Source: a virus. Taken from it: a DNA stretch of 42,123 nucleotides. Below, piece by piece: positions 11,840 to 40,640 of this stretch. The stretch covers positions 1-42,123 of the IMG/VR virus record IMGVR_UViG_3300045988_118927, one strand, 5' to 3'. The notes beneath the pieces are model-generated. The model was not told where the DNA came from. It made no database searches and saw only the letters and a program-made list of their open reading frames with translations. A program made the position numbers and the translations under genes. Within the stretch, counting starts at the first letter, position 1. Each line of letters starts with the position of its first letter.

Positions 11840-12054
11840 AAGTTAACTGGAAAAGAAAACTTACAAGCAGAAAGCTGTGGCTTGCTGTCGCAGGCTTTGT
11901 TACTGGTCTGATCATCGCATTCGGCGGTGCGGAAGAAACTGCAAATACCGTGAGCGGATGCATTATGTCGGGAGCGGCGGTCATCGCCTATATCATCGGT
12001 GAAGGTCTTGCTGACAGCGGCAACGGAGGAAACAGCAATGGCTCTGAAAATTAA
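11836..12054 (+). CDS. Holin (two TM segments, 72 aa)
   Basis: Basic N-terminus MKVNWKRKLTSRK, two hydrophobic segments and a polar Gly/Asn/Ser tail. Lies directly upstream of, and overlapping, the endolysin. Confidence 0.75.
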   Translation: MKVNWKRKLTSRKLWLAVAGFVTGLIIAFGGAEETANTVSGCIMSGAAVIAYIIGEGLADSGNGGNSNGSEN

Positions 12055-13129
12055 AGGCATAGATATCAGCAGAGCCCAGACGGATATAGACTTTGACAAG
12101 ATAAAAAAGGCAGGCGTTAAGTTTGTTATTCTCAGAGCAGGCATCGGCTCGGATGAGGATACATACTTTCGCAGATACCTTAAGCAGTGCGAAAAGTACA
12201 AGATACCTTACGGCTGTTACTGGTATGTAAAAGCTGTAAAGAATGCAGAGTTCCGCAAGGAAGTTAAAGCCTGCATAAACACACTGAAAGGCTTGAAGCC
12301 GTCATATCCCGTGTTCTTCGATATGGAGGAGCAGGCACAGATCGACCATCTGACAAACGAAGAACGCACAGATATGGCAAAATACTTTTGTCAGATGGTC
12401 GAGAAAGCAGGCTTGCCATCGGGTATATACGCAAATCCGGCTTGGCTTGAAACATACTACAACAAGTCTGAGCTTGTCGGCAAGTATGACATATGGCTTG
12501 CACACTGGACAGGATCGCCCGACAATCCAAGCAGATATGACTATGGGCAGACAATGTGGCAGTGGGGAATAACAAGCATAGATGGCAGAGATGTTGACGG
12601 CAATGTGTGCTTTGTCGATTACCCGGCAAAGACGAGTTACTGGTACAAAGCACACACCACAAGTGCAGGAAATACTCAGAAGCCCTCTCAGACAACGCAG
12701 GATGCCTCTAAAAACGATTTTGGCATCGAGGCAGGGAAATATGTCACAGTAAAGTCTAACGCCGTTTTTAAGGGTAATATAAAGCCTCTGAGCTTTGTGT
12801 ACGAAACTAAGTTTAGAGTGCAGAATATGTCAAGCGATGGAATCTATGCTCTCATCGGTCTTGACGGAGAGCCGACAGGATGGATGGATAAGAAGTATCT
12901 GACGGTAGTATCGGACACAAAAAAAGTGCCGACTCTTAAGGTCGGCGATAAGGTCAAGGTAAAGACGGGAGCGAAAACCTACAGCGGAGGTAGTCTTGCA
13001 GTCTTTGTCTATACGCAGGTCTATGAGGTAGTGCAGGTCGGAGCAAACGGCAAGAGCGACTACATAGTCATCGGTCAGAACGGACAGGTCACAGCAGCAG
13101 TAAAGGCAGCGGATCTGAGGAAAGTATAA
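12038..13129 (+). CDS. Endolysin: GH25 muramidase domain plus C-terminal SH3b-like wall-binding repeats
   Basis: KGIDISRAQTDIDFDKIKKAGVKFVILRAG...FFDMEE is the GH25 pattern. The C-terminus has two KVGDKVKVKTGAKTY / KYVTVKSNAVF SH3-like segments. cggagga RBS before ATG 12038. Confidence 0.85.
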   Translation: MALKIKGIDISRAQTDIDFDKIKKAGVKFVILRAGIGSDEDTYFRRYLKQCEKYKIPYGCYWYVKAVKNAEFRKEVKACINTLKGLKPSYPVFFDMEEQAQIDHLTNEERTDMAKYFCQMVEKAGLPSGIYANPAWLETYYNKSELVGKYDIWLAHWTGSPDNPSRYDYGQTMWQWGITSIDGRDVDGNVCFVDYPAKTSYWYKAHTTSAGNTQKPSQTTQDASKNDFGIEAGKYVTVKSNAVFKGNIKPLSFVYETKFRVQNMSSDGIYALIGLDGEPTGWMDKKYLTVVSDTKKVPTLKVGDKVKVKTGAKTYSGGSLAVFVYTQVYEVVQVGANGKSDYIVIGQNGQVTAAVKAADLRKV

Positions 13130-13130
13130 A

Positions 13131-13170
13131 AGATCCCCAATGGAGTTATGCTCTGTTGGGGATCTTTTTT
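13131..13170. terminator. Bidirectional rho-independent terminator between the endolysin (+) and the 328-aa gene (-)
   Basis: agatccccaa (13131-13140) pairs with ttggggatct (13156-13165). A T-run follows on the + strand and an A-run precedes. Confidence 0.8.
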
Positions 13171-14155
13171 ATTTTACTTTGTGTACTGTTGTGCCAGAAT
13201 TGTCGCTATCGTATTCCGAGCTTCCAACGAACACGGATTGTAACCATTTTACAACGAGTTTTCTGTCATCTGGATTGCCTTTTTTTCCTGTCCAGAAGCT
13301 ATGAAAATGACTTCTGCGTATGTGCGGAGTCTTTTTCACTCCTTTTCCTCCTCTGCTGTGGGAAACGGATTGCGATGACCGCTCTGTGTTATCACGCTTG
13401 TATCGTCTGTATTCGTTGCCGAATCGATATCCTACGGTTGATATTTGCGTTTTGCTTTGCGTTTTGTTGCTGTACTCGTTAATCGCAGGAGTTGTAAGTT
13501 TTTTTGTTATTGCTTGCTTTGTCACAGGCTCGATCTCGGCGTTAATTGCCGTAAGATAGATGATATATTGCATTGTGTTAAAAATTAACTCTACGGCATC
13601 ATCCTTTTTGCCGATTATGCCGTTTACATGTATGCCTCCGCTTAAATCAAGCGTTTTGATTAGCCGCTCTGCCTCAAGGTGTATAGACCTTTTGACAAAC
13701 TCCTTTGACTTTCCTCGCCTTGTAAAGTCGGTAATCAGCACGGAATCATTTGATGCGATGTAAGTAAAAATGAATCCCACACTATCGTGCCATTTACGCT
13801 CGACAAAGAATGTGTCAACGGGTAGATGCTCCAGAGCGTATCGCTCTAAAGCGGTTTCTCTGCATTGCTCCGAGAGCAATGTGCTGAGGTCATCGTCAAA
13901 CAAGTAAGTTTGCCGTCCGTGCGTTGTAAAACGCTGTAAAGCAGTAGCAGGAAGCACTTGTAATGTTATCGTGTCCTCGTTTTTGTAATAAATTTTTTGT
14001 GCGTCCGCACCATAATCGTCCCTAAGCTGACGGACAACTAAATCTATTACATCATCCACCTTGCAGTTAAACGGCAAATTGCTGAGCGGATATTTATTCC
14101 GCTCAGCCTTGAGTATCTCGTTGATTACAGGCGAGTATTGCTGTTTACTGCCCAT
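13169..14155 (-). CDS. Unknown 328-aa protein, last gene of the counter-oriented operon
   Basis: GGAGGT RBS. The start overlaps the upstream HTH gene by 11 nt. Basic C-terminal motif TPHIRRSHFHSFWTGKKGNPDDRKLVVKWLQSVFVG. I recognise no family. Confidence 0.65.
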   Translation of the reverse strand: MGSKQQYSPVINEILKAERNKYPLSNLPFNCKVDDVIDLVVRQLRDDYGADAQKIYYKNEDTITLQVLPATALQRFTTHGRQTYLFDDDLSTLLSEQCRETALERYALEHLPVDTFFVERKWHDSVGFIFTYIASNDSVLITDFTRRGKSKEFVKRSIHLEAERLIKTLDLSGGIHVNGIIGKKDDAVELIFNTMQYIIYLTAINAEIEPVTKQAITKKLTTPAINEYSNKTQSKTQISTVGYRFGNEYRRYKRDNTERSSQSVSHSRGGKGVKKTPHIRRSHFHSFWTGKKGNPDDRKLVVKWLQSVFVGSSEYDSDNSGTTVHKVK

Positions 14156-14651
14156 TTTGTACCTCCGAGATGTGACGTTTGATGCCGTTGTAATATCCGA
14201 GTAAAAACGCTGTCTGCTCTGCGTTACTCGCCGTCTGATCGCCTGTCAGATAGTCGCAACGATCAATATCCGATATAGTTTTTGCAATCCACATATTGTC
14301 CTGCTCTGATAAAATGCACATCGGGATTGCCTTTTTTGCAAGCTCAAGCAATGCAAGTGTTGGATGCTCAACAGCGTATGCAAGTTTGGCAGGATCGGCA
14401 ATGCTCGGTATTTTTGCCGACACAAAACCGTAAACCTGACCGATGCTCTCAAACATGTCCGCTCTTGTAAACTTGGCTCTCTCGGCAATATCAAAGCTGC
14501 CGAGAACGGCGGTTAACTTATCTATGAGGTCGTCTGACGGATTCCTTGTTCCGTTCTCGATCCTGCTTAAATGTCCCTTGTTGGTTCCGCACACTTGTGC
14601 TAACTGCTCAAGCGTGTATCCCTTTTCTTTTCGTGCGTCTTTAAGTGTCAT
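14145..14651 (-). CDS. XRE-family HTH protein with an unknown ~100-aa C-terminal domain
   Basis: KGYTLEQLAQVCGTNKGHLSRIENGTRNPS is a canonical XRE/Cro-type HTH. ATGA overlap with the upstream gene. Confidence 0.8.
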   Translation of the reverse strand: MTLKDARKEKGYTLEQLAQVCGTNKGHLSRIENGTRNPSDDLIDKLTAVLGSFDIAERAKFTRADMFESIGQVYGFVSAKIPSIADPAKLAYAVEHPTLALLELAKKAIPMCILSEQDNMWIAKTISDIDRCDYLTGDQTASNAEQTAFLLGYYNGIKRHISEVQNGQ

Positions 14652-15016
14652 TTGCTTTTGTACTCGCTTTCATAACTTTTTAGTTCATATTCCGGGCGAT
14701 AAAGATACCAGGGCATCATGCATCCATACTCGTATCTTGCAAGGCTGTTTGCCGTGTAAAACAGTGCGTCAACGTTATCGGGTATGCCGTCTAACAGCTC
14801 TGCTACTTTTGCTCTCAAAGCATCCGTCATATATATGTTTGCCCAATCGTTGAGTAACTTTATTGTCCTAAACGGATGTATCTCGCTGTTATCGTTTAAC
14901 AGGCAGATAGGGCTGCGGTAAGGTTTTAAAACCTTTTCATACAGACAATATGCTTCACAAAGTCTATGTGCGATTTCCTTTTCCTTTTCGGGAGTGTTGA
15001 TTTCTTCAAGTGTCAT
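14648..15016 (-). CDS. Unknown 122-aa protein
   Basis: aaaggaaagga RBS. Translationally coupled to the HTH gene. No recognisable motif. Confidence 0.6.
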   Translation of the reverse strand: MTLEEINTPEKEKEIAHRLCEAYCLYEKVLKPYRSPICLLNDNSEIHPFRTIKLLNDWANIYMTDALRAKVAELLDGIPDNVDALFYTANSLARYEYGCMMPWYLYRPEYELKSYESEYKSK

Positions 15017-15073
15017 TGTTTTGTCCTTTCCTTTCTCCCTCTGCCCTGTTGCAGAGGGAGGTGACCGATTGCC

Positions 15074-15409
15074 TTAGTCCTTGATTTCTTCATTTTCGTT
15101 GATCCACTCACAGCCAGTAAGCTCATACTCACCGTCCTCGTCATACTCACGCTCCTCGATGTAACTCACTTCACACTCAAAAAAATATACTGCATTTTTG
15201 AGCAGACGAGCTGTAGTCGGAAGCTTGGCAAGCTTTGCCTGAGCTTCTTCAAGCGTATCGAACAGCTTTTCGTCAAAGCCGTTATTGCGTAATCCGTCCT
15301 CAGCGTTAAACGCTTCACGGACTGTCATCGTTCCTCGTCTGACTGCTTTGACATCTCTGCTGTCACTGATTTCGCCGTACTTTGTCACTAAAGCAAATTT
15401 CTTTTCCAT
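15074..15409 (-). CDS. Unknown acidic 111-aa protein
   Basis: Own RBS (agaaagacgagga). The C-terminal third is very acidic (EEREYDEDGEYELTGCEWINENEEIKD). Confidence 0.6.
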   Translation of the reverse strand: MEKKFALVTKYGEISDSRDVKAVRRGTMTVREAFNAEDGLRNNGFDEKLFDTLEEAQAKLAKLPTTARLLKNAVYFFECEVSYIEEREYDEDGEYELTGCEWINENEEIKD

Positions 15410-15508
15410 GATTTTATCCTCGTCTTTCTCCGGGAGTAATCCGCTCCCGGTCGGTTTAAAATTTGTTCCTGTCCTCGTTTTTGCCCCGTAGAGCGAGAGC
15501 CGAAGTTC

Positions 15509-15697
15509 TCAGTCCTCAATCTCGTAAAAAGCCGTTACCAGTGCATCTCCGTCATCCGTTATCTCAGCGATGCGACCGTCTGCGTTTGTGTAGTGATGCT
15601 CATTGCAACACTCTCTGCACTCCTCAAGTGTTCCGTTGATGATGTCATCTGCATAGCTGTTGCTCTCAAGCTCCACACTGTAAAATACCTTTGCCAT
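15509..15697 (-). CDS. Unknown strongly acidic 62-aa protein, first gene of the operon
   Basis: acaggaggtaatcaaa RBS. About 17 Asp/Glu versus about 3 Lys/Arg by eye. Confidence 0.6.
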   Translation of the reverse strand: MAKVFYSVELESNSYADDIINGTLEECRECCNEHHYTNADGRIAEITDDGDALVTAFYEIED

Positions 15698-15766
15698 TTT
15701 GATTACCTCCTGTGTTTTGCACGTTTAGATTGATTTTTTATCAGCCTCTCGTTTGGCTGTGTCTAT

Positions 15767-15795
15767 ATGATATCACACGTTTCCCGTTTTGTCAA
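15767..15795 (-). promoter_or_regulatory. Sigma-70/SigA-type promoter of the counter-oriented operon
   Basis: The minus strand reads TTGACA (15795-15790), a 17-nt spacer, then TATCAT (15772-15767). This is about 70 nt upstream of the ATG at 15697. Confidence 0.65.
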
Positions 15796-15830
15796 CACCA
15801 AATTGGCAACATTTCAGCGTTTTTGTAGAC

Positions 15831-15871
15831 TTGCACAAAAAAATCTGCAAAGATTGTGCAAACTGCACAAT
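15831..15871. promoter_or_regulatory. TGCACAA half-site cluster including the 19-bp palindrome ATTGTGCAAACTGCACAAT
   Basis: TTGCACAA at 15831-15838. Perfect 8-bp inverted repeat with a 3-nt spacer at 15853-15871. Lies 35-75 nt upstream of a TATAAT at 15907-15912 and of terS. Confidence 0.5.
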
Positions 15872-15950
15872 GCAGTCAAATCGCCACAGATGATTGGGCG
15901 GTTTTGTATAATATATATAAACGCACACGAACATCTAAGGGGGCGAGAAC

Positions 15951-16448
15951 GTGAAGTATGACTACTGGATGACAGACGAAGGCTTAGAGATCATCGCAGG
16001 ATGGGCGAGAAGGGGCTTGACGGATGCGGATATATCGCATAACATCGGCATAACAGAGCGGACTCTGAGGGATTGGAAGCGGCGATACCCCACCATAAAC
16101 GCCTGTCTAAAAAACAGCAAAGACCTTGCTGATACTGTAGTTGAGAATGCTTTATTTCGTAAGGCAACGGGATATAAAACAAAGGAAGTGTCCTATAAAG
16201 CGGACAGCGATGGCAATCTTGTGCCTGTTTCTGCGGTCGAGAAGGAAGTGCCACCGAACACTACAGCCCAAATCTTTTGGCTCAAAAATCGCCGACCTGA
16301 CCTATGGCGAGATCGGCGTAAAGAGGCAGAGAGCGACACTCAGAGCGGCGGCGTAGTAGTCTTGCCTGAGGTGGTAGCAGATGCTATAAAGACTATAGCT
16401 CCTCCACCTGAGCATACTACATCTTGTGGTGATGACGATGAGCAGTAA
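15951..16448 (+). CDS. terS: Terminase small subunit (GTG start at 15951 or ATG at 15969)
   Basis: N-terminal HTH (RRGLTDADISHNIGITERTLRDWKRRYP), then ...TTAQIFWLKNRRPDLWRD, typical of small terminase. aaggggg RBS. Lies immediately upstream of TerL. Confidence 0.75.
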   Translation: MKYDYWMTDEGLEIIAGWARRGLTDADISHNIGITERTLRDWKRRYPTINACLKNSKDLADTVVENALFRKATGYKTKEVSYKADSDGNLVPVSAVEKEVPPNTTAQIFWLKNRRPDLWRDRRKEAESDTQSGGVVVLPEVVADAIKTIAPPPEHTTSCGDDDEQ

Positions 16449-17877
16449 CACTATATGGACACCACAGCCGAAGCAGGCGGTCTTTTTAAGCCGTCCTGAG
16501 TATGAGGCACTATACGGCGGTGCGGCAGGCGGTGGCAAGTCTGATGCACTGCTTGCAGAGGCTCTGCGGCAAGTACATATACCACACTATAAGGCACTGA
16601 TACTCCGTAAGACATTCCCTCAGCTTGCGGAGCTTGAGAGCAGATCGACAGCTATATATAAGCAAGCCTTTCCGACCGCAGTATACAACGCATCTAAGCA
16701 TGTATGGTGCTTCCCTTCGGGAGCGAGGATATACTTCGGGGCGATGCAGAGAGTGCAGGATCGCACTAAGTATCAAGGTCAGCAGTTTGACTTTATCGGC
16801 TTTGATGAGCTTACACACTTTACATGGGATGAGTACAGCTATATGTTCTCCCGTAACCGTCCGAGCGGATCGGGGACGAGGGTATATATGCGAGCGACAG
16901 CCAATCCGGGCGGTGTCGGTCACGGATGGGTAAAGCAGCGATTTATCACAGCCGCAAAGCCGATGACACCCATCATCGACACATACACAGTCACAGATAC
17001 AGCAGGACAAGCACATACCTATCAGCGTAGCAGGATCTTTGTGCCTGCGAGTGTCTTTGACAACAAACAGTTACTTGCAAACGATCCTGCATACCTTGCA
17101 TCGCTTGCGATGTTGCCACAAGCGGAGCGAGATGCCTTGCTATACGGCAATTGGGATAGCTTTTCGGGGCAAGTGTTCGCCGAGTGGCAGGACGATCCGA
17201 CACACTATGTCGACAGACAGTGGACACACGTTATAGAGCCGTTTAAGATACCACAGCACTGGGTAATAGTCAGAGGCTTTGACTTTGGCTATGCAAAGCC
17301 GTTTTCGGTCGGTTGGTATGCGATTGACGAGAGCGACACGGTCTATCGCATCAGGGAATACTACGGCTGTACTGATGTAGCCAACACAGGCTTAAAGCTC
17401 AATCCTGCAGAGATAGCATCGGAGATACGGCGTATCGAGAGCGATGACGAGAACCTCCGAGGCAAGACTATCACAGGGATTGCAGACCCGTCTATCTTTG
17501 ACAGGAGCAGAGGCGAGAGCGTAGCGGACATTATGTCAAAAGCACCAAACTTTGTTCTTTGGTCACCGGGCGATAATGCAAGGATCGCAGGCAAGATGCA
17601 GTATCACTACAGGCTTGCGTTTAATGCTGATGGATTGCCTAAGTTTTACTGTTTCTGCACTTGTAAAGGTTTTTTGAGAACGATTCCTGCTTTGGTCTAC
17701 GATGACGTACACGTTGAGGATATCGACACAACGCAGGAGGATCATATCTATGACGAGTGCAGATATGTCTTGATGGATCATCCGATAGCTGCTCCGACCG
17801 TGTCGGCAAGCGTACCGAGAGGCGATGATCCGCTTGATCAGCGAGTACACAAAAACTACAGCTTTTATAACATTTAA
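16426..17877 (+). CDS. terL: Terminase large subunit (start ambiguous: GTG 16426, ATG 16432 or ATG 16438)
   Basis: Walker A YGGAAGGGKSDALL and Walker B FDFIGFDELTHF, followed by a C-terminal nuclease-type region. Confidence 0.85.
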   Translation: MVMTMSSNTIWTPQPKQAVFLSRPEYEALYGGAAGGGKSDALLAEALRQVHIPHYKALILRKTFPQLAELESRSTAIYKQAFPTAVYNASKHVWCFPSGARIYFGAMQRVQDRTKYQGQQFDFIGFDELTHFTWDEYSYMFSRNRPSGSGTRVYMRATANPGGVGHGWVKQRFITAAKPMTPIIDTYTVTDTAGQAHTYQRSRIFVPASVFDNKQLLANDPAYLASLAMLPQAERDALLYGNWDSFSGQVFAEWQDDPTHYVDRQWTHVIEPFKIPQHWVIVRGFDFGYAKPFSVGWYAIDESDTVYRIREYYGCTDVANTGLKLNPAEIASEIRRIESDDENLRGKTITGIADPSIFDRSRGESVADIMSKAPNFVLWSPGDNARIAGKMQYHYRLAFNADGLPKFYCFCTCKGFLRTIPALVYDDVHVEDIDTTQEDHIYDECRYVLMDHPIAAPTVSASVPRGDDPLDQRVHKNYSFYNI

Positions 17878-28131: not shown

Positions 28132-28146
28132 ACGGAGGTTTTGAGA

Positions 28147-31100
28147 ATGGACGAAGAAAGACTCAAGCGTATAAGGGCAAACATTGCGAAACACGAAGAA
28201 CGCAAGAAAACGCAGAATATAATGGGCGATATTGATTCGTCTAAACTTGACCGCAGTAACACAAGCTACAATAAAAATGATGCCGCTTTCGAAATGGCAA
28301 AGCAGCACTATCAGAATAGCTATCTACCGAAGAAGGCACAGGAATACTACAAGGGCGTTGAAAACTACAGAAATTCATATGAGCAGATGGCGAACAAGCC
28401 GAGTGCGAATAACTATACTGTAATGACTCCCGAAAACGAATCAGCGAATCTGATTGGTGACGATATCAACACATACGTTTCTCCGCAGATGCGTGAAAAG
28501 GCACAGAAGCACTATAACGAGGTATTTAACAACGAGAACAAGAAGTATGCTGAACAGTACGCAAGGTTGAACGAAAAGAGCAAGCCTGCGTACAGTTATG
28601 CACAGGCAAAGAGCAAAGCAGCGAAGGAAGTCGATAACAGCATCAACGCTTTTTCTTCTCAGTTTAAAGACGAGAACGAATACAACGCTTATGCTGATAA
28701 TATGGCACAGGCAAAGGAACAGCAGAGATTGCTTGACTACAACGTAGCTGAGGCAAAAAACAAACTGCTGACAATGAAAGCTGATACAGACGAATACAAA
28801 CAAATTGAATCAGATATAAAGAAAGCGGAAACTGTACAGGAATTTGCAAAGAATATGCAGGACGAAAACTTCCGCAAAGAATACGCCGAATACGAACAGC
28901 ATCAGAAGGACTATGAGAACAAAAACTGGTTTGGCAAGGCGGTTGAGCAAGTCGGAAACGCTATAGATGATGTTATCTATAGTTACGGTGGCGGTATGTA
29001 CGGTGTGGCAGAATCGGTTAGTGGAATTGCTGACTCTGTTTTCGGTAGAAATCCGAATGAAGAAGGAACACTTTCGAAAAATATTCATGACTTTTACAAT
29101 TACATCCATAGCGAAACAGAACGCAGGCAGCGTTATAGCAATTATACAAAGCAAGGGCTTACAACAGACATCTACAACGCAACTAATAACGAAGAATTTA
29201 GCAACATCGCAAGCAATGTTATCTCAATTACGCTTAACTCTCTTGCCGATGCAGGCGTAAGTATGGGAATGGCGGCACTCACTGGTGGAACATCTCTCGC
29301 ACAGAAAGGTTTACAGTCAACAGTAGGACTTACGAAAACACAGAAAGCTACGCAGATGATGTCAAGTATGGCTAAAGGAATGACAAAAGACCTCAACTTC
29401 TGGACATCGTTTGCGAGAGAAGGCGGTAGTGCGTACAATGATGCCATCGCCGCAGGAGCATCAAACGAGGAAGCTACAATTGCTATGCTTGCAACAGGCT
29501 TACCGAATGCTTATATCGAAGTCGGAGGCGGTGTCGAAAAGTTTAAAGACTTAGCAGGAACAGGCGTTAAGGGATGGCTCAGAGATTTCGCAAAAAGCAC
29601 AGGCGAAGAAGCGACCGAAGAATTGAAGCAGGGCATTATATCAGAGCTTGTTAAGAAGCTGACGTATGCTCCCGAAACAGAGCTATTCTCGACAGCCAAT
29701 GACGGTAGTGGTATTATCAATCCGATAAGAATGTATCAAGAAGCATTCGGTGGTGCTGTAGGCGGTGCTTTTGGTGGCTCTGTCGGTAAAGCTATAAACG
29801 TTGCAAGCTACACTGTAGCAAACAATATGTATAAGTCGGACAGTATGAGAGAGCTTATACAGAGCGGTAAGTATACTGAAATGCTTAAAGCACTTCCCGA
29901 TTCCGACTTTAAGAACAGCGAGATAAGCAAAACGTTCAGTGCTGAAATGGATGAAAAGCAGACTCTTGCGAAGCTCAAAGGCATAAGCAACAGACAGCTT
30001 ATCAAGCAGTACGATTCTATGGTTGATACGCTCAGTTCTGTGTCAGAAGGCAATGTTGCCAGTCTTGCACTTATAGCGACAGGCGATACAAAAACAGCCA
30101 CAGAGGTTGCTCCTATTCTCAGAAAGCTGTATGACGGTAAAGTAATAACAGAGGAAGAAGCTAAGATTATCTCACGCAATGAGAACGTTGTTAATATGCT
30201 CAGTGAAACCACAGGCTTGGATATGACGAATTCTTCGTGGGAAGAATTCGTTACACTATCGGAGCAGGCACAGTTTGAGAATATAACAGGCACAAGTACA
30301 GGCAACGCTATTGCTGATGTTGTTCTTGGTAATGCTCAGAGGGCTGAAGCAGGAAGAAACTACATAGCAGAAGAACAGAACAAGTATGCAAACGATCTCT
30401 CAGGCACACCTACATTCACGGCACAGATAGGTGATGAGTCTGTTAAGATAACAGGCATAGATCACATTGAAAACGGCGAAGTGTATGTAAATCTGTCAAA
30501 CGGCACAACGCAGGAGGCACAGAGTCTTAACACAGATGAAGTTACTACTGCTCTACTTTCCTATGCATCTGAGTATGATGCAAAAACTGCATCGGCATTT
30601 ATCGGTGGATACACAGGCAATATCTCTGTTGGTGAGTATGCGAGAAGTTTTGCAGGAGTAAACTCGGCAGCGAAAGCCGGGCTTAGCTATGATAATATTG
30701 TAAAAAGTGCTCCGACTATGATAAACAACGTAGGCATCGATACAGCAAAAACACTCACAAAAAGCGGCAACGCATTTGCTTTAAAACAGGCAACAGCCGA
30801 TATCGAAAACACGGTATCAGCACAGCAGAGACAGGCAACACGCAACGACAAAACCTCTGTAAAAAACAAGACAGGCGGCACTGTTACAAGAGAACACAGA
30901 ATACTTGCCCGTACCGTATCAAAGGTGACAGGCTATACCGTTGTGCTTGTAGACAGCACGAACGTCAAAAACGGAAAGACAGTTAACGGCAGAAAGGCTA
31001 TAGGTGAGTTTAACTCCACAAAGGGCGAAATCGTTCTTGATATAGGCTCTGATGATGTAGTAGCTACTACTCTGCACGAAGTTACCCACTACATAAAACT

Positions 31101-34100
31101 TAACGCACCGACACAGTATAACGCTTTGCGTGACGCTGTAATTGAATATGCGACAAAGACGGGTAAGATAGAGTATTATCTTGAAAAGTACGCAAATTCA
31201 TACGGTACAGATAATGTGTATGAGCTTACCGAAGAGATGACCGCAGACGCCGCCGAAGCTCTGCTGACAAACGAGAAGTTCATCAACGAGTTGTTAAGCG
31301 ACAAGTCGTTCGTCAACGCTGTTGTAGGCGAAAACAAAGGCTTTGTGCGCAAGTTCCTTGACACTCTGCACGATATAATCAGCGCTATTAAAGACTATCT
31401 CAAAGGCAGAAGCGTAAATCATCAGATAGCAAGAGAACTGTCGGAAGACGTAAAGGCGCTTGAAAAGATTGAGAAGCTTTGGAGAGATGCTTTGAAGGCG
31501 GCGGTTAATAATCATGCTGAAAGCTCGGCTGTTAAGCAAGATACGAAAAAATCCGCTACAGAGAGCGGAACAAAATTTTCTATTAAAGAAGATATGTCGG
31601 AGCAGGAACGTTACGAAGAGCTTAAAGATAAGTCTATAGTTGTCTCAAAGCCTGACATGAGCAAAGTATCCGATATAGACATTGAAGCATATAAAAACCT
31701 CAGCACCAAAGAAGCCAAAAAGCCGATCAGAAGAATTGCGGAGATGCTCGGAATACACAACGTCAATTACAAAAACAGCAATATCAAATTTGATTTTGCA
31801 TTTTCGAAAGGCAGCCTTGATACAAGTCTTAATCATCAAAGAGAGTATGGCGGAAGTTACACAGATTATGCTGAGATGCTTACCTGTCTTGAAAAACTCA
31901 TTGAAAATGCAGAGCTTATAGAAGTACATAAAAACTATAAGGATAACGAACAACTTAAAAGGACATTTGTGTTGATGAGTGCGTTAAGCGGCAAAGATGG
32001 TATTTATCCTGTTCAATTTGAAGTTAAAGAGTTTTACAGTAGCACCAAAAAGTTATATTTAACTGCTGTTCTGACAAAAATAAAAGAACCAGCCGTCGTA
32101 ACGGAGAGCCACACCGATTACTCGGAAGCATCAACTCCGCTGGTAGCTGATTCTACAATCAGTTTATCACAGCTTTTTGCAAATGTCAACCCCACTGACA
32201 AAAGGTTTTTAAAATATGTGCCGGATAACTTCTTATCAGCAGAGCAAATCGAAGCAAAGCGTAAAGCTCAGAAGAGTGATTACAAAAATTACAACAGATA
32301 TGTTGAGGTGTTTGAAAATGACAAAAACGGTAGCGACAACAAATTCTCCCTCTCCGAACCCGTTGAAGAAAAAGGCAATCTCATAGCTGTACATAATATC
32401 TATACAGATAAACTCGTCAAGTCATTAAAGCTCGGCGGTTTCCCGATGCCCTCAATAGCAGTCACAAAAGCGGATATGGGTCACGGGAATTATGGCGAGT
32501 GTTCGTTTGTTTTTGACAAATCAACGATTGATCCGAAAGCTGATAAAAGAAATAAGGTTTACGGTGGTGATGCGTGGACTCCAACATATCCGGCAATCGA
32601 GTATAAAGTAAGCGAAAAAATAGCGGACAAGGCACGAAAAAAATACTATGACTTATACGAACAGTACGGAGAAAAAGTCAGAGGTATGTATCGCTATGGC
32701 GTTACACTTGAAGATACTCTCAACAGCGAGGGTGGCGAGCAGAAAATGCTCAACAAGTTATACGATGATCCTGCTATGATGCAGGTGTATAGGCTTGACA
32801 ACGGTATGTCGGCAGTAGATAATGTTGTAAAAAGAAGAGAACGCCAGACGCTCAACGAGCAGGAAATAGCGTTGTCAAAACAGCTTTTGTCAGCGTTGGG
32901 AGACAAAATAGAAGAAGCAAGTGCAAAGAACGGCGAAAACCCTCTGCCGATAAGAAAAGCGTTTTTCAACAAATATCACGATGAGGTTATCAAGGCTTTT
33001 GAGGATTATTACAAAAGCACCGGAACGAGTGTCGAAGAAACTGAAACAAAGATAGCAAACACAAAGGCGTTTACGTTTGTTTCGTCAATAGCAAAAGCGC
33101 TGAGATACAAACAAAACAAAGGCATTGTTGCCGAAGAAATCTTTGATAACGAAGCAACAGATAAAGCTGTTCGTGATAGTGTTGACCAGTCTGAGTATCA
33201 AAAATGGATTGACGGACTGTTTAAAGGTGCTGAAGAAAAGAGTGGCATATGGAACGGTAAAGATTTTTACACACCAAGCGGAAGAACTCGAAACTTTGAT
33301 GCGCTCCATTACGAAGAAACTCTTGAGAACGTTGTTAAAGTAATGCGTTCCGAAATGAATGGTGACACTCTTTTTGGTGGCATGGGAATATGGGGCGTGG
33401 CGCAGAAAGAATACTCGTCTATTGATAAATTGAAATCAGACTCAGCTCGTTTGCAAAAAATGAGCGATGACGAATATTCAAACATAAAAAGTGGCTTTGC
33501 TGAACAGCTTAGCGAAGTGACTAAGGCAATCAAAAACGATTACTCCGGTAACAATTTCATTGATAGTGATATTGTCGCAGGTAATATTGTTGATGCAGTA
33601 AGAGAGTCAAAAACAAAGTCAGGCATAAAGAGCTATCTAAAGGAGTATTATCCCGATATAACCGATACGGCTGTAGATGATATCGTAAACCTTGTTCACG
33701 GCATTATGGAAATGCCGACAGGATATTTTGAAGCCAAGCCACAGAGAGCGGTACGCTTCGATGAAGTCAAGTATGCTGTTGTGCCGGAAACACTGGACGA
33801 GAACATAAAGAAACAGCTTTCCGAGTACGGCATTCAGGTTGTCGAGTACGAAAATGGTAACGAGAAAGACAGAACAGCAAAACTTAATTCGCTTGACGAT
33901 GTTAAGTTTTCTATTTCTGAACAGACATCTGCTGAGTATGAAATGCTCAAACAGGAAAACAATGATCTCAAGGCACAGATAGAAGCATTAAAAAAAGAGA
34001 TGGAATTGACAAGCGGTCACACTGTAGATGCCGAAGCAGTAAGCAAACTTGCCAAGAGATATATCAGAGAATACAAGAGCAAAGCCAATGTTGAAGAAGT

Positions 34101-37100
34101 GTCTGCAAAACTCAAACAGATTTTTGAGTACATTGCGAATGAAGATGCAAATGCCGAAGAAGCAAACAAGGCAATGTTTGAGCTTGCAGCACAGATAGTC
34201 AACAAGTCGGAAACGCTGAACGCTGAAATGCGTGATACATTCAAGGATGAGCTTGACATTATTCGTTCAGCGAGAATTTACGTTGACGATGCAACTAAAG
34301 CTGAGATAGAATCTCTGTACGGCGATTACAACACCTTCCGCAAGTCAATGTTCGGCAGAATGAAATTGACTACCAACAAAGAAAGTCACGGTCAAACAGT
34401 AGATATGCTTGTGCAGGAGCTTGCAGAGCTTGCACCGGGACAGTTTGATACAAACGTATCTGAGGGAGAATGTCTTGAACAGCTTGTCAGCTTTATAGAA
34501 GCAACAAAGCCGAGAATAGAAAATCCCTTCGGAGATTCTGTTGCTGAAGCGGCAAGCGAGTTAGCGTGGCAGATATTTGACGATTACTTCGATACTCCCG
34601 AAGTTAAAACGTTTGCCGACAAATACGAAGCAAAACTGCAGAAGGTTATCAACGAAAACCGTATAGCGAGAGCCGAATTACGCAAGGCTGAAAGGGCGAA
34701 AGCGAAAGCATTTTACGATGAAAAGCTCAAGGCTCTGCGTGATGAGAAAAACGAAGCTATAGCTAAGTTACGCAAGGAGAAAAACGATAAGTACGATAAC
34801 GATATTAAAAATCTGCGTGATGCCAAAGACAAGAAACTGAACGATGTCAGAGCTGACCGTGATGCCAAACTCAAGGCTCTGCGTGAACATTACAGAGAAC
34901 AGCAGAGAGAGAAGAGAGAAAACGCTGCCAAATCTGAACTGAGAGCAAGGATAACTACCGAGTACAAAAAGTTGTACAAGGATCTAACATCAAACAGCAA
35001 AGAGCATCACATTCCTGAAGTGTATAAGGAAACCGTTGCAAACGTGCTTGCAAGCATTGACCTTATAAGTAAAGCATCAAAGGAGAAAGCGGCTAAAACA
35101 GGTGAGGTTACAAAGGTTGCTGAAAAATTGAACAATCAACTGACGGCACTTGAAAACTTCATTTTGAATTATTCAATGTATGGAAACAAAGATGACGGCA
35201 CGAGCAGTGAACAACTGTACAATTTCGACCCCGACCTTGTATCCAACATTCAAAAAATCAAAGAGTATTTTAAGAGATATGCGAATAGCGGTACTAAAGC
35301 AATATCTGATATGAACATAGAAGAGTTAGAAGCCTTACACAATACGCTTAAAGCGTTGCGCTATGCTGTCAAAACAGCTGATAAAGCACTTTCTGCAAAC
35401 ATTACTCAGAGAATAACCGAGCTTGCTGAGAGTTCTATTTCAGAGATGGCAACGGATAGGACAAGAAGTCCGTTTAACAAAAACAAAGCGGCGCAGGCTG
35501 TCGGAGCGGTTGATACTTATATCAATTCTCAAATGCTTGACGCAAGGAGCTATTATCGTGGCATGGGCGATTCAGCATTTGAAATTTACAAGGCATTCCG
35601 CTCTGGCTTAGATTCCTTCATCAAACACACGCACGAAGCACAAGATTACTTTGCAAAAGTGCGTAAAGACAGTGGCTATACAGACAAGCAAATAAAACAC
35701 CTTGTGGACGATTACAAAACCTATACCGTATCACACGGCGAAATAGCAATGTCAAAAGCACAACTTATGTCGCTGTATTGTCTGTCGAAACGTGAACAAG
35801 CACTCGAACACATCTACAAAGGTGGTATCAGACCGACAGATCTTAAAGGAAAACGGCAAATAAAACCCGTGATGATTTCACCTGACGAGCTTTCAAGCCT
35901 ACTGAAAAATCTTAACAGTAATGAAATAGCTATGGCTGATAGGCTACAGCAGTTTATGGCTACCACTTGTGCAGAATGGGGCAATGAAGTGAGCATGGCT
36001 ATGTATGGCTACGCAAAGTTTACAGAAAGAAACTACTTCCCAATAAAGTCATCTGACACGAAGATACGGACAAACGATCAGAATTCGGGTGGGGACGCTG
36101 GCCTTTATTCAGTGCTTAATTACGGCATGACAAAAAGCCTTGTCAAGAACGCAAATAATTCTATTGACGTGGGAGATATTTTTAGTGTTACAAGACAGCA
36201 CATTGAGGAAATGAGCAGTTACAGTGCCTATGCATGTGCCGTTGCCGATAGTATGCGTTGGTTCAATTACAACAATCGTGAAACAGGCGAAAGCGTAAAG
36301 CAGTCTATGCTTAACAAATTCGGCACGAACGGTAGCAAGTATTTTATTGAGCTAGTGCGTGATATCAATCGCAACAAGCCTACGGGAAATTACGGCGGTG
36401 AAATATCAAGTGTACTTACATCCGCTCAAAAGGCGGCGGCTATAGCTGGTAACCTGTCAGTCGTTGTACAGCAACCTACGGCAATTGCGAGAGCTTGCAC
36501 CGAACTGTCGCTCGATTTAATCACAGAGGGAATAGCAATATCAGCTACGCACATCAAAAAGTCGGTACAAGAAGCTCAGGCACATTCAGATATTGCATGG
36601 TGGAAATCGCAAGGCTTTTTTGAAACTAATATGAGCAAATCAATGGACGAAATTATCACAGGAAGAAGCACTGCAAAGGATAAGATCGTTGAAATGGCTA
36701 TGAAGCCTGCCGGACTTGCCGATGATGTTACATGGGGAGCAATATGGGAAGCTACAAAGCTGTGGACAAAGAAATTCCATCCCGAAATAGAAGTTGGTTC
36801 GGATGAATTCTTCAGCATCACGAAAGAGAAATTTGATGATGTTGTCGATCAGACTCAGGTTGTGGACAGTGTACTGCACAGACCGATGATATTGCGAAGC
36901 AAGAACGCTTTAGTTAAGATGGATATGTCCTTTATGGCAGAGCCTCTTAAGTCAGCAAATCTGCTCAGAAACGCTATCGTTGATGTAAAGAACAAAAAGC
37001 CTAACGCTACAAAAAGACTGATCCGAGTATACGCATCCTGCGTAATGGCAAACGTTTTAGCGGCGGCGGCGAAAGCTATCGTAATGGCATTCCGTGATAC

Positions 37101-38247
37101 AGGAGATGATGAGTGGCGTGAAAAGTGGCTTGAGTCATTCGTGGGAGATTTGCTTTCCTCGCTTAATCCTGTCAGCATCATTCCGTTTGTCAAGGATATT
37201 CTCACGTTACTTGATGGTTATGATGTTGAACGTATGGATATGTCAGCAATCTCAGGAATTATCAAGTTCGGACAGCAGATGGCCACATCGGCACAGAAGG
37301 GGGAGCTTGATACATCGCTCAGTTTACAGAACGTTTATAAGCTGACAAGGTATCTCTCACGGCTTGCAGGCATTCCAGTGTACAACGTTCTCAGAGAGGT
37401 TGACACTATCATTGACATCTTCGGAGAGCCTATCTTCCGAGCATCACAGGCAACGCCCAATACGGAGAGATACGAAACTCTGTACAACGCTGTGATGAAA
37501 AACGATGAAGCCGAAATGCAGAACGAATATGACAGGCTCAGCAAGACACAGAGAGAAATTGAACGACGGTTAAAGTCGAAAATAATTGATGACAGCAAGG
37601 GCAACAAGATGTTCAATGCGGATGTCGATAAGGCGGCTAAAGCAAGAATAAGCGGAGATGTTAAAACGGCTGTAGAAATTGTGAAAAACCTTGCAGATAC
37701 AACGGCTCTGTCGAAGGATTTCTGGACAGCTTGTGTAAATGCGAGAGTAAACAAAATCAGCAAGGCACAGGAAAACCGCACACAGCTCATCGAAGCAGGC
37801 ATATCCAAGCTGACGGTTGACAATATGAGCGACACTGAAGTAAACGAGGCTCTTAAGAGTTACGAAACCGAAGCAGACACATCTACAGCAAGTGACTTAA
37901 ACGAGGACACCAATACCGAATCGCTCTACACAGCCGATGATTTAGTCAAGGCTCTGCAGGACGGCAACGAGTCTGATTACAACACGGCATATGACGATAT
38001 GGTGTCCACAAAGGCTGTATCTCTGATAATGCAGGCAGAAGCTGATAACAAGGAGCTTACTGCTGACGAAGCAGAAGAAAAGGCTGAAAGCTCGATCAAG
38101 TCGGCAATTACAAAAGTGCTTAAACCTTTAATGCGTGAGCTGTACAAAACCGATAAGAAAAAGTTTAACGAAATGAGGAAGAAAATCATCAAAAAATTTG
38201 GTTATACATCAAAACAGATAACAAAATGGTTGACTTCCGAAGAATAA
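28147..38247 (+). CDS. Giant multidomain (polyvalent-type) virion protein, 3366 aa, with a zincin-like HExxH module
   Basis: Single uninterrupted ORF of 10.1 kb. ggaggt RBS 7 nt before ATG 28147. HEVTH at nt 31075-31089 in the context GEIVLDIGSDDVVATTLHEVTHYI. Gly-rich hydrophobic segments (about aa 280-560), long coiled coils (about aa 1930-2400) and C-terminal hydrophobic segments. Confidence 0.8.
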   Translation: MDEERLKRIRANIAKHEERKKTQNIMGDIDSSKLDRSNTSYNKNDAAFEMAKQHYQNSYLPKKAQEYYKGVENYRNSYEQMANKPSANNYTVMTPENESANLIGDDINTYVSPQMREKAQKHYNEVFNNENKKYAEQYARLNEKSKPAYSYAQAKSKAAKEVDNSINAFSSQFKDENEYNAYADNMAQAKEQQRLLDYNVAEAKNKLLTMKADTDEYKQIESDIKKAETVQEFAKNMQDENFRKEYAEYEQHQKDYENKNWFGKAVEQVGNAIDDVIYSYGGGMYGVAESVSGIADSVFGRNPNEEGTLSKNIHDFYNYIHSETERRQRYSNYTKQGLTTDIYNATNNEEFSNIASNVISITLNSLADAGVSMGMAALTGGTSLAQKGLQSTVGLTKTQKATQMMSSMAKGMTKDLNFWTSFAREGGSAYNDAIAAGASNEEATIAMLATGLPNAYIEVGGGVEKFKDLAGTGVKGWLRDFAKSTGEEATEELKQGIISELVKKLTYAPETELFSTANDGSGIINPIRMYQEAFGGAVGGAFGGSVGKAINVASYTVANNMYKSDSMRELIQSGKYTEMLKALPDSDFKNSEISKTFSAEMDEKQTLAKLKGISNRQLIKQYDSMVDTLSSVSEGNVASLALIATGDTKTATEVAPILRKLYDGKVITEEEAKIISRNENVVNMLSETTGLDMTNSSWEEFVTLSEQAQFENITGTSTGNAIADVVLGNAQRAEAGRNYIAEEQNKYANDLSGTPTFTAQIGDESVKITGIDHIENGEVYVNLSNGTTQEAQSLNTDEVTTALLSYASEYDAKTASAFIGGYTGNISVGEYARSFAGVNSAAKAGLSYDNIVKSAPTMINNVGIDTAKTLTKSGNAFALKQATADIENTVSAQQRQATRNDKTSVKNKTGGTVTREHRILARTVSKVTGYTVVLVDSTNVKNGKTVNGRKAIGEFNSTKGEIVLDIGSDDVVATTLHEVTHYIKLNAPTQYNALRDAVIEYATKTGKIEYYLEKYANSYGTDNVYELTEEMTADAAEALLTNEKFINELLSDKSFVNAVVGENKGFVRKFLDTLHDIISAIKDYLKGRSVNHQIARELSEDVKALEKIEKLWRDALKAAVNNHAESSAVKQDTKKSATESGTKFSIKEDMSEQERYEELKDKSIVVSKPDMSKVSDIDIEAYKNLSTKEAKKPIRRIAEMLGIHNVNYKNSNIKFDFAFSKGSLDTSLNHQREYGGSYTDYAEMLTCLEKLIENAELIEVHKNYKDNEQLKRTFVLMSALSGKDGIYPVQFEVKEFYSSTKKLYLTAVLTKIKEPAVVTESHTDYSEASTPLVADSTISLSQLFANVNPTDKRFLKYVPDNFLSAEQIEAKRKAQKSDYKNYNRYVEVFENDKNGSDNKFSLSEPVEEKGNLIAVHNIYTDKLVKSLKLGGFPMPSIAVTKADMGHGNYGECSFVFDKSTIDPKADKRNKVYGGDAWTPTYPAIEYKVSEKIADKARKKYYDLYEQYGEKVRGMYRYGVTLEDTLNSEGGEQKMLNKLYDDPAMMQVYRLDNGMSAVDNVVKRRERQTLNEQEIALSKQLLSALGDKIEEASAKNGENPLPIRKAFFNKYHDEVIKAFEDYYKSTGTSVEETETKIANTKAFTFVSSIAKALRYKQNKGIVAEEIFDNEATDKAVRDSVDQSEYQKWIDGLFKGAEEKSGIWNGKDFYTPSGRTRNFDALHYEETLENVVKVMRSEMNGDTLFGGMGIWGVAQKEYSSIDKLKSDSARLQKMSDDEYSNIKSGFAEQLSEVTKAIKNDYSGNNFIDSDIVAGNIVDAVRESKTKSGIKSYLKEYYPDITDTAVDDIVNLVHGIMEMPTGYFEAKPQRAVRFDEVKYAVVPETLDENIKKQLSEYGIQVVEYENGNEKDRTAKLNSLDDVKFSISEQTSAEYEMLKQENNDLKAQIEALKKEMELTSGHTVDAEAVSKLAKRYIREYKSKANVEEVSAKLKQIFEYIANEDANAEEANKAMFELAAQIVNKSETLNAEMRDTFKDELDIIRSARIYVDDATKAEIESLYGDYNTFRKSMFGRMKLTTNKESHGQTVDMLVQELAELAPGQFDTNVSEGECLEQLVSFIEATKPRIENPFGDSVAEAASELAWQIFDDYFDTPEVKTFADKYEAKLQKVINENRIARAELRKAERAKAKAFYDEKLKALRDEKNEAIAKLRKEKNDKYDNDIKNLRDAKDKKLNDVRADRDAKLKALREHYREQQREKRENAAKSELRARITTEYKKLYKDLTSNSKEHHIPEVYKETVANVLASIDLISKASKEKAAKTGEVTKVAEKLNNQLTALENFILNYSMYGNKDDGTSSEQLYNFDPDLVSNIQKIKEYFKRYANSGTKAISDMNIEELEALHNTLKALRYAVKTADKALSANITQRITELAESSISEMATDRTRSPFNKNKAAQAVGAVDTYINSQMLDARSYYRGMGDSAFEIYKAFRSGLDSFIKHTHEAQDYFAKVRKDSGYTDKQIKHLVDDYKTYTVSHGEIAMSKAQLMSLYCLSKREQALEHIYKGGIRPTDLKGKRQIKPVMISPDELSSLLKNLNSNEIAMADRLQQFMATTCAEWGNEVSMAMYGYAKFTERNYFPIKSSDTKIRTNDQNSGGDAGLYSVLNYGMTKSLVKNANNSIDVGDIFSVTRQHIEEMSSYSAYACAVADSMRWFNYNNRETGESVKQSMLNKFGTNGSKYFIELVRDINRNKPTGNYGGEISSVLTSAQKAAAIAGNLSVVVQQPTAIARACTELSLDLITEGIAISATHIKKSVQEAQAHSDIAWWKSQGFFETNMSKSMDEIITGRSTAKDKIVEMAMKPAGLADDVTWGAIWEATKLWTKKFHPEIEVGSDEFFSITKEKFDDVVDQTQVVDSVLHRPMILRSKNALVKMDMSFMAEPLKSANLLRNAIVDVKNKKPNATKRLIRVYASCVMANVLAAAAKAIVMAFRDTGDDEWREKWLESFVGDLLSSLNPVSIIPFVKDILTLLDGYDVERMDMSAISGIIKFGQQMATSAQKGELDTSLSLQNVYKLTRYLSRLAGIPVYNVLREVDTIIDIFGEPIFRASQATPNTERYETLYNAVMKNDEAEMQNEYDRLSKTQREIERRLKSKIIDDSKGNKMFNADVDKAAKARISGDVKTAVEIVKNLADTTALSKDFWTACVNARVNKISKAQENRTQLIEAGISKLTVDNMSDTEVNEALKSYETEADTSTASDLNEDTNTESLYTADDLVKALQDGNESDYNTAYDDMVSTKAVSLIMQAEADNKELTADEAEEKAESSIKSAITKVLKPLMRELYKTDKKKFNEMRKKIIKKFGYTSKQITKWLTSEE

Positions 38248-38661: not shown

Positions 38662-38693
38662 GCAAACCGCATTGTTATGCGGTTTGCTTTTTT
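38662..38693 (+). terminator. Strong + strand terminator abutting the integrase stop codon
   Basis: gcaaaccgcat - tgtt - atgcggtttgc (11-bp stem), then T6. Confidence 0.75.
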
Positions 38694-40240: not shown

Positions 40241-40286
40241 AAAAAAACGCCCTGAAGCCATAATAGCCTCAGAGCGTTCTTTTTTA
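40241..40286 (-). terminator. Terminator downstream of the repressor gene (bidirectional shape)
   Basis: A7 - acgccctgaagc...gcctcagagcgt (imperfect stem) - T6. On the minus strand the stem is followed by T7. Confidence 0.55.
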
Positions 40287-40622: not shown

Positions 40623-40640
40623 GGAATCACCTCCTTTCAC

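Follow-up and report, generated by a model that had tools for sequence, protein, structure and literature searches.

The 42,123-nt viral DNA studied here, IMG/VR record IMGVR_UViG_3300045988_118927 (hereafter the window; all coordinates refer to the whole stretch), carries between its lysis and packaging genes five minus-strand genes, which we call p62, p111, p122, p168 and p328 after the lengths of their products in amino acids (aa). Sequence comparison placed p328 in the AcrVA2/FinQ family, which includes an anti-CRISPR protein and an inhibitor of plasmid transfer, and related cassettes were found in other prophages of gut Clostridia.

The original prediction had described a self-contained, moron-like unit, and this was borne out: all five open reading frames (ORFs) are present with the sizes and coordinates it gave, and the long neighbours of the cassette are all on the plus strand. 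The first gene, p62 (15509-15697), encodes an acidic protein of 62 aa with an isoelectric point (pI) of 4.05 and lies in a slot of variable content. It is followed by p111 (15074-15409), which encodes an acidic 111-aa protein (pI 4.5) of a small unnamed family, and by p122 (14648-15016), whose 122-aa product is a near-orphan. The 168-aa product of p168 (14145-14651) is composed of an XRE/SinR-like helix-turn-helix (HTH) domain at residues 1-55 and an all-helical C-terminal domain, and the last gene, p328 (13169-14155), encodes a basic protein (pI 9.3) of 328 aa. The overlaps that had been noted among the last three genes were confirmed, an ATGA between p122 and p168 (14648-14651) and 11 nt between p168 and p328 (14145-14155). 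Since four of the five genes have protein-level homologs on other contigs, they are real genes rather than chance ORFs; for p62, the support consists of a strong ribosome-binding site (AGGAGG) and its position. The G+C content of the cassette (0.42-0.46) is close to that of the flanks (0.43-0.52), so base composition does not mark it out as foreign. A DNA-level search of isolate phages gave no match.

On the upstream side of the cassette lie an XhlA-like gene and then a GH25 endolysin gene (11999-13129); on the downstream side, the gene for a small HTH terS-like protein is followed by that for the large terminase subunit (Terminase_6N). The window also encodes a tyrosine integrase (38692-39846) and an HTH_3 repressor-like protein (40284-40640), and the phage is therefore considered temperate.

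The predicted promoter of the cassette, TTGACA-17-TATCAT, is present on the minus strand at 15767-15795. It matches the consensus at 11 of 12 positions, has a TG ahead of the -10 element and is the sole site with at least 10 of 12 matches between 12500 and 16500; the 5' end of its transcript is predicted close to 15760. We regard it as validated by conservation, because TTGACA-17-TAT[C/T/A]AT is kept in 10 of 10 related cassette loci, and not by site counts, which are at shuffle level (6 promoter-like sites in 12500-16500 versus 6.6 expected from shuffles, no enrichment). At its other end the cassette has a terminator hairpin (13128-13168; 19 pairs, 7 of them G-C), which abuts the stop codon of p328 (13169-13171) and is shared by p328 and the convergent endolysin gene. 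It had been called bidirectional; a T-run is indeed found on the plus side, but the minus strand has only UUUU 3' of the hairpin, so that the terminator is only partly bidirectional. The five genes, among them the HTH gene, point in the same direction, overlap or are separated by short gaps, and have a single consensus promoter and a single terminator; they are presumably co-transcribed from that promoter.

Membership of p328 in the AcrVA2/FinQ family

None of the four non-HTH proteins had been recognised in the original prediction. For p328 this is now superseded, as the motif quoted there, HIRRSHFHSFW...VVKWLQSVFVG, contains the C-terminal signature of the AcrVA2/FinQ family (HIRRSHFHSFW...VKW). 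Pfam family PF26125 (AcrVA2-like) is the precomputed annotation of the exact window protein and of 36 of 36 database homologs. Local Pfam, NCBIfam and PADLOC scans were empty for p328, p122, p111 and p62; for p328 the empty Pfam scan is an artefact that wrongly suggests an orphan, because the copy of Pfam-A scanned lacks the PF26125 model. In PHROGs, p328 belongs to phrog_6160 only, to which no function is assigned there.

A single-sequence phmmer search of the PDB with p328 detected AcrVA2 (7CI1) at E = 4e-7, and a profile of the 21-member subfamily matched AcrVA2 at E = 2.4e-19, with residues 87-317 aligned to 84-320 of the chain. When the p328 profile was compared by hhalign, it matched plasmid FinQ with a probability of 99.1% (E = 5e-19, 237 columns) and the homolog of Moraxella phage Mcat1 with a probability of 99.0%. 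The tblastn matches include genes annotated as 'protein finQ' on plasmids and as 'AcrVA2', and in a Foldseek search of the PDB with the AlphaFold2 (AF2) model of p328 the top match was AcrVA2 (7CI2_A, E = 2e-3, probability 0.94). A match to ComFB (E = 0.14) was treated as noise. We concluded from these sequence comparisons that p328 is a member of the AcrVA2/FinQ family.

The alignment places PHIRRSHFHSFW...VVKWLQSVFVG of p328 on PHIRRGHWHGYW...RVRWQPAVFVN of AcrVA2. Residues H286, R288 and H291 of AcrVA2 (the chain numbering of 7CI1 is the published AcrVA2 numbering plus 1) correspond to H278, R280 and H283 of p328 (motif P277-H278-I-R280-R-S-H283), which are invariant in the 21 subfamily sequences, and the H-x-R...H residues are also found in FinQ and in the Moraxella homolog. 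D87 of p328, within a Y-x-F-D motif, aligns with D89 of AcrVA2 and is likewise invariant in the subfamily. AcrVA2 binds the nascent N-terminal peptide of Cas12a and causes a translation-dependent loss of cas12a mRNA; H286, R288 and H291 are needed for this down-regulation and not for binding, and mutation of W79 or D89 weakens the protein (10.1101/2022.11.29.518452). FinQ, an AcrVA2 homolog, is the IncI1 inhibitor of F transfer and lowers tra mRNA (10.1101/2022.11.29.518452; PMC8744291). Between p328 and distant members of its subfamily, the identity is 0-19% over the N-terminal 75 residues and 9-23% over residues 131-192, and 64-76% over the motif region (275-310). Such a variable N-terminal and middle part with a conserved C-terminal motif matches the published model of variable recognition and a conserved effector.

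This family membership bears on two explanations of the locus. According to the first, it is a true type V-A anti-CRISPR locus, in which p328 would down-regulate the host Cas12a as AcrVA2 does, the acidic proteins would be further anti-CRISPR proteins (Acrs) and p168 would be an anti-CRISPR-associated protein (Aca). Cas12a occurs in some gut Clostridia, e.g. Lachnospiraceae; p328 keeps the functional residues of AcrVA2, and the operon, with its strong promoter, resembles acr-aca operons in layout. However, the N-terminal and middle regions are only 0-23% identical within the subfamily, with no similarity to AcrVA2 over the first ~85 residues, and the ~1,800 AcrVA2 orthologs, carried on diverse mobile elements, are mostly found in bacteria free of Cas12a (Marino et al., 10.1101/2022.11.29.518452). 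We consider this explanation unlikely. The second explanation, FinQ-like exclusion from the prophage, supposes that p328 acts against competitors, be they plasmids, conjugative elements or superinfecting phages, by silencing their genes, and thereby protects the lysogen and with it the prophage. The kinship with FinQ (99.1%), which lowers the mRNA of F transfer genes, is in its favour, and so are the position at a prophage end or opposite the lysis genes and the own promoter and terminator, which are typical of lysogen-expressed morons; the same layout fits an early anti-defence expression equally well, and we consider this second explanation rather unlikely. Candidate targets of p328 are, from the more to the less likely, a host defence protein distinct from Cas12a, some function belonging to a rival mobile element, and Cas12a.

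A copy 92% identical to p328, from which residues 148-245 are missing, was seen on an IMG/VR contig (L003:6001-6517) and appears to be an internal deletion or pseudogene.

Related cassettes in other prophages

Contexts of the homologs were gathered by exact-protein look-ups (loci and proteins are given L- and P-numbers, respectively); pattern scans of genome and viral collections yielded only 1 and 3 loci. The original prediction would have been refuted had its genes never occurred together elsewhere. The trio, which defines the type A cassette, recurs in two other prophage backgrounds. In L006-L008 it belongs to a different siphophage with an M23 endolysin, where p122, p168 and p328 are 97%, 93% and 87% identical to those of the window and the cassette stands opposite the lysis genes, adjoining tRNA-Pro and the host dnaG-rpoD. 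In L021/L022 the corresponding identities are 61%, 60% and 72%, and the cassette lies between an integrase with a tRNA fragment and a GH25/holin cassette.

Five further loci, L026-L030, occupy the same host locus and have the same promoter as type A, with a different terminal pair, in which an unrelated 140-aa gene overlaps a gene from a second AcrVA2-like subfamily, whose product shares 27% identity with p328 (e.g. L026:6128-7530). We refer to these as type A'. The 140-aa protein is an orphan, its Pfam scan being empty; its C-terminus has a ribbon-helix-helix look by eye, and a relationship with p122 or p168 was rejected as no BLAST similarity was found. AcrVA2-like genes of type B are 53-74% identical to p328, lack p122 and p168, are followed by a conserved 130-aa gene, and lie inside co-directional operons of other elements. 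In four of these loci (L016-L019; e.g. L016:6573-8984) the AcrVA2-like gene, 72% identical to p328, is directly downstream of a gene for a 382-aa reverse transcriptase (RVT_1, E = 3e-17), with a perfect TTGACA-17-TATAAT promoter in the 280-bp gap. Type C consists of more distant AcrVA2-like members with a 165-aa downstream gene, also opposite a lysis cassette. The type B and type C genes have their own perfect TTGACA-17-TATAAT promoters. More distant homologs of p328 occur alone or with unrelated neighbours, and that of Moraxella phage Mcat1 is located just inside attL, on the strand opposite to the tail genes. In three of the type B elements (L009, L015 and L020), an S24 repressor, a GmrSD_N protein, a PemK toxin and an MrpR-type recombinase were seen a few kb away, a gene set that looks like a conflict-gene island.

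The slot between the promoter and the terminal genes differs from cassette to cassette. It is filled by p62 and p111 in the window, by a 236-aa gene in L006, by a 98-aa gene and a p111-like gene in L021, by a 57-aa gene, a p111-like gene (87%) and the same 236-aa gene as in L006 (95%) in L026, and by 57-aa, 180-aa and p111-like genes in L029. The position of p62 is thus taken elsewhere by a 236-aa, 98-aa or 57-aa gene, and p62 itself was found only in the window phage, as it gave no match in Pfam, PHROGs, PADLOC, NCBIfam, the PDB, isolate phages or any fetched locus. The p111 family has 27 homolog clusters, none of them named; its members are 64% (L021/L022), 87% (L026-L028), 58% (L029/L030) and 30% (L009) identical to p111, and in 5 of 5 distinct contexts examined, including the window, they lie inside an AcrVA2-like cassette. 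No match to p62 or p111 was obtained by tblastn against isolate phages, and a match of p111 to DUF3856 (E = 0.028) was treated as noise.

These results show that the slot genes are shuffled among cassettes and that the cassette is mobile and mosaic among prophages of gut Clostridia. They also bear on the explanation that the locus plays no part in conflict and is an ordinary regulatory module of the phage, controlling for example the late genes or the timing of lysis. Such a module would fit the position between lysis and packaging genes, the HTH protein and the inverted repeats in the divergent intergenic region near terS; but the related cassettes, always opposite lysis genes or at a prophage end, move among prophages with different endolysins, tails and genome positions, in other prophages they stand at the attachment end, away from terS, and their anchor gene comes from a conflict family. 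This explanation is extremely unlikely.

Far from the cassette, 3' of the tail genes, the window contains a single plus-strand ORF of 3368 aa (28141-38247), which alone accounts for ~24% of the 42-kb genome. With a PBECR5 nuclease domain (residues 1400-1644, E = 8e-61) and an LPD3 domain, it qualifies as a 'large polyvalent protein'.

The p122-p168 pair and the upstream elements

The XRE-type HTH assigned to p168 in the original prediction was confirmed by an N-terminal HTH_3 match (E = 6e-14). Among solved structures the HTH is closest to SinR; the PDB matches also include CapH, C.BclI, ClgR and PezA, and no entry named Aca. The C-terminal domain is lineage-restricted, with 3 homolog clusters in 5.8 billion proteins. 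It is all-helical in the AF2 model of p168, which has a predicted local distance difference test (pLDDT) score of 79, and a fold search with p168 found nothing beyond the HTH at E <= 0.001. Over the whole chain there are weak echoes of PlcR, ComR and Stl, with non-significant scores that are no evidence, and in BFVD two phage proteins of ~100 aa, both uncharacterised, can be superposed on ~100 residues of p168 with template-modelling (TM) scores of 0.72-0.78 on the target (E ~0.03). When 1.84 billion representatives were searched exhaustively with HMMER, p122 had 3 hits, and it had no match in the PDB or the family libraries; a PADLOC match to Cas6 (E = 0.011 over 26 residues) is noise. Neither p122 nor the C-terminal domain of p168 had a tblastn match in isolate phages. 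In the loci examined p122 is always paired with p168, its homologs in L006 and L021 being directly upstream of a p168 homolog. The only distant relative of p122 is a metagenomic protein of 247 aa (P0042) with two tandem copies of a segment matching residues 57-116 of p122; the shared pattern is W-x-N-x-Y...FY...E-x-GC...WYL.

Homologs of p328 that are 72-74% (P0009, P0011) or 53-59% (P0015, P0017) identical have no adjacent p122 or p168 homolog. Since AcrVA2-like genes as close as 72-74% occur without the pair, p122 and p168 appear, as judged from gene content, to be dispensable for the basic activity of the effector, and an obligate sensor-effector or toxin-antitoxin pairing is disfavoured. 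This concerns the explanation that the trio is a defence, abortive-infection or toxin-antitoxin module, with p168 (together with p122) as antitoxin or sensor and p328 as a toxic effector released on infection. The tight translational coupling of the three genes, the weak matches of the p168 HTH to antitoxin-type and CapH-type HTH models and the non-significant echoes of ligand- or protein-sensing repressors in its C-terminal domain could be read in this way. However, apart from a generic HTH on p168, the PADLOC search that had been proposed matched no defence model, distant p328 homologs stand alone or beside unrelated genes, and the characterised members of the family serve the mobile element and not host suicide. 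We hold this explanation to be very unlikely. The broader suggestion in the original prediction of a lysogen-expressed defence or exclusion system is disfavoured in its defence part on the same grounds, while p328, as kin of FinQ, may have a lysogen-expressed function against another mobile element. A regulatory role fits the p122-p168 pair best.

The upstream region of the cassette holds several elements. About 42 bp upstream of the -35 element lies TTGTGCAAGTCTACAAA (minus strand, 15822-15838), found in all cassette loci whatever the regulator; as a 17-nt element, TTGTGCAAGTnTACAAA, it is common to all ten A and A' loci, and its exact core TTGTGCAAGT occurs once each in L001, L006, L008, L021, L022 and L026-L030. 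As an operator of p168 the TTGTGCAAGT element was rejected, because it is also present in cassettes with the 140-aa gene instead of p168. Where the cassette promoter and terS diverge, nested inverted repeats were also observed at 15831-15871 (TTGCACAA-N15-TTGTGCAA and ATTGTGCA-N3-TGCACAAT); the arm at 15831-15838 is part of the conserved upstream element, and L006 and L021 keep the partner arms only in part.

Directly upstream of the -35 element, and overlapping it, is a block specific to the regulator type (minus strand, 15789-15819). It holds an imperfect dyad, GTTGCCAA-N7-TTGACAA (15810-15789), that overlaps the -35 element. Over the 24 nt that precede the -35, p168-type cassettes share 67-92% identity with one another and only 12-33% with 140-aa-type cassettes, which have TTACACRAAA twice in the block instead, while the flanking promoter elements are shared. 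The co-variation of block and regulator type points to the gene overlapping the AcrVA2-like gene as the candidate DNA-binding regulator of the cassette, and the block is a candidate operator of p168. On this sequence pattern, p168 is probably the cassette's own, Aca-like regulator.

An inverted repeat in the leader was also considered as an operator. It forms the stem-loop CAGCC-N8-GGCUG at the 5' end of the leader (minus strand, 15742-15759; -8 kcal/mol, z = -4.9), followed by an A-rich run. At homologous positions L006, L021 and L026 have the stems GGGAAC/GUUCCC, CAGGAU/AUCCUG and GGGUU/AACCC, so that the pairing is kept in four cassettes despite changed stem sequences. The p168 proteins of the window and L006 share 93% identity, yet the repeat has an entirely different sequence in the two and keeps its pairing; the operator role was therefore rejected, and the repeat is more likely an RNA stem-loop. 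Further hairpins precede the gene blocks. One, with an AGAAAG ribosome-binding region, lies just ahead of p111 (minus strand, 15430-15450; -13 kcal/mol, z = -1.7, weak), and a near-identical hairpin is found ahead of the 236-aa gene in L006. Another, a GC-rich hairpin of 10 bp (minus strand, 15035-15060; -20.7 kcal/mol, z = -5.2), is immediately ahead of the p122 ribosome-binding site. Its sequence is identical in L006, where an unrelated gene precedes it and homology to the window begins immediately 3' of that gene's stop codon; this hairpin marks the upstream, or recombination, border of the trio. A hairpin and then an AGAAAG-type ribosome-binding region stand ahead of every gene block in the cassette; the hairpins are possibly mRNA stabilisers or module junctions.

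Interpretation and comparison with known systems

We think it probable that the locus is an acr-aca-like conflict cassette, a mobile moron of temperate gut-Clostridia phages whose effector would silence one target mRNA. According to this interpretation, a strong sigma-70-type promoter would drive first the slot, whose small genes vary and mostly encode acidic proteins (p62 and p111 in the window), and then the conserved trio p122-p168-p328. p328 is the anchor of the cassette and, to judge from its family, probably its effector, and its silencing mechanism is modelled on the experiments with AcrVA2. By homology, the variable N-terminal and middle parts of p328 would bind the nascent N-terminal peptide of one specific target, and the invariant C-terminal P-H-x-R-R-x-H...VKW motif would bring about the loss of the target mRNA during translation; the host would thereby lose a defence protein, or a rival mobile element one of its functions. 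p168 would, probably in the manner of an Aca, bind the type-specific block at the -35 element and damp the strong promoter after an initial burst, and p122, translationally coupled upstream of it, might modulate p168 as SinI does SinR, which is speculative. The layout suggests expression early, in the lysogen, or both. Of the two readings in the original prediction, the acr-aca type is the closer one, although its roles were assigned backwards: the anti-CRISPR ancestry is in the basic 328-aa protein and not in the small acidic ones.

A variant of this interpretation, which we advance only tentatively, is that the cassette is a general nascent-peptide-directed gene silencer aimed at a non-CRISPR target, i.e. 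another defence system or a rival phage or conjugative element of gut Clostridia, with p122 and p168 as a dedicated anti-repressor/repressor switch in the manner of SinI-SinR or Stl, setting the time at which the silencer is made, and the slot as a reservoir of undescribed anti-defence proteins. If this is true, the slot genes (p62, p111 and the 236-, 180-, 98- and 57-aa genes) could be found through their association with the conserved promoter.

Several observations weigh against the conflict-cassette interpretation. Similarity of p328 to AcrVA2 is undetectable over the first ~85 residues, and the position of AcrVA2 W79, a W in most family members and FinQ, is F76 in the window clade. The AF2 model of p328 superposes weakly on 7CI2 (TM 0.23, root-mean-square deviation 13 Å), because its conserved C-terminal part (residues 205-320) is modelled poorly, with pLDDT <50. 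In AcrVA2 itself, the molecular step of mRNA destruction is still not established in the literature. The candidate operator dyad matches at only 6 of 8 positions, the co-variation of block and regulator rests on two regulator types, and p168 resembles no Aca with a solved structure. Finally, between the window and L006 the pair is more conserved than the effector (p122 97% and p168 93%, versus p328 87%); for this reason p122 and the C-terminal domain of p168 may have an important function of their own beyond simple regulation.

The family of p328 is already curated in Pfam and widespread on mobile elements, so the locus adds a member and not a new system. As far as the literature was searched, three features have not been described: a gut-prophage cassette with a conserved promoter and a variable slot, the translationally coupled partners p168 and p122, and p111 as a constant companion. 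AcrVA2 is the only bacterial protein reported to recognise a nascent peptide and destroy the mRNA being translated, and the locus offers an entry point to the targets of its ~1,800 relatives in Cas12a-free bacteria. It is a compact, probably self-regulated example from Firmicutes, in which the promoter is defined, a regulator is likely and the catalytic-type motif is invariant; this makes target discovery straightforward, and the conserved promoter (TTGTGCAAGTnTACAAA ... TTGACA-17-TATAAT) provides a search handle for shuffled anti-defence candidates in gut phages.

Among known systems, SinI-SinR of Bacillus subtilis is an analogy only for p122-p168. The HTH of p168 is closest to SinR, and in both cases a small gene lies immediately upstream of a regulator with an HTH and a helical domain; there is no similarity in sequence or structure outside the HTH, and p122 is twice the size of SinI. 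The acr-aca operons resemble the cassette in having one strong promoter, in combining a changing set of small acidic genes with a conserved HTH gene, in lying in accessory regions of prophages and in the mosaic shuffling of the small genes among relatives. They differ in that the HTH gene of the cassette is not the last one, being upstream of the large AcrVA2-like gene and overlapping it, and p168 has an extra helical domain of 110 aa and a dedicated upstream partner, p122; in the PDB-based comparison, homology of p168 to a characterised Aca was not found.

FinQ differs from p328 in being plasmid-borne in Enterobacteria, in its length of 361 aa and in its N-terminal region, and in the one plasmid examined it is flanked by annotated hypothetical proteins with no named regulator. 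It is of the same family with the same C-terminal motif, and it serves one mobile element against another by lowering the target mRNA. AcrVA2, from a Moraxella bovoculi prophage (PDB 7CI1/7CI2), comes from a different kind of host than p328, whose host is a gut Firmicute; the two are only ~25% identical, cannot be aligned over the first ~85 residues and differ at W79, which is F in p328. The gene for p328 is preceded by the coupled HTH gene and p122, whereas in Moraxella phage Mcat1 no gene is annotated immediately ahead of the homolog. Like p328, AcrVA2 is prophage-encoded, and its homologs in Moraxella catarrhalis phages are at the prophage end, opposite the structural genes. The two proteins are similar in size (322 and 328 aa), and their homology extends from around residue 85 as far as the C-terminus; both keep the YxFD aspartate, and the P-H-x-R-R-x-H-[WF]-H...W and V-[KR]-W motifs, including the three activity residues, are identical.

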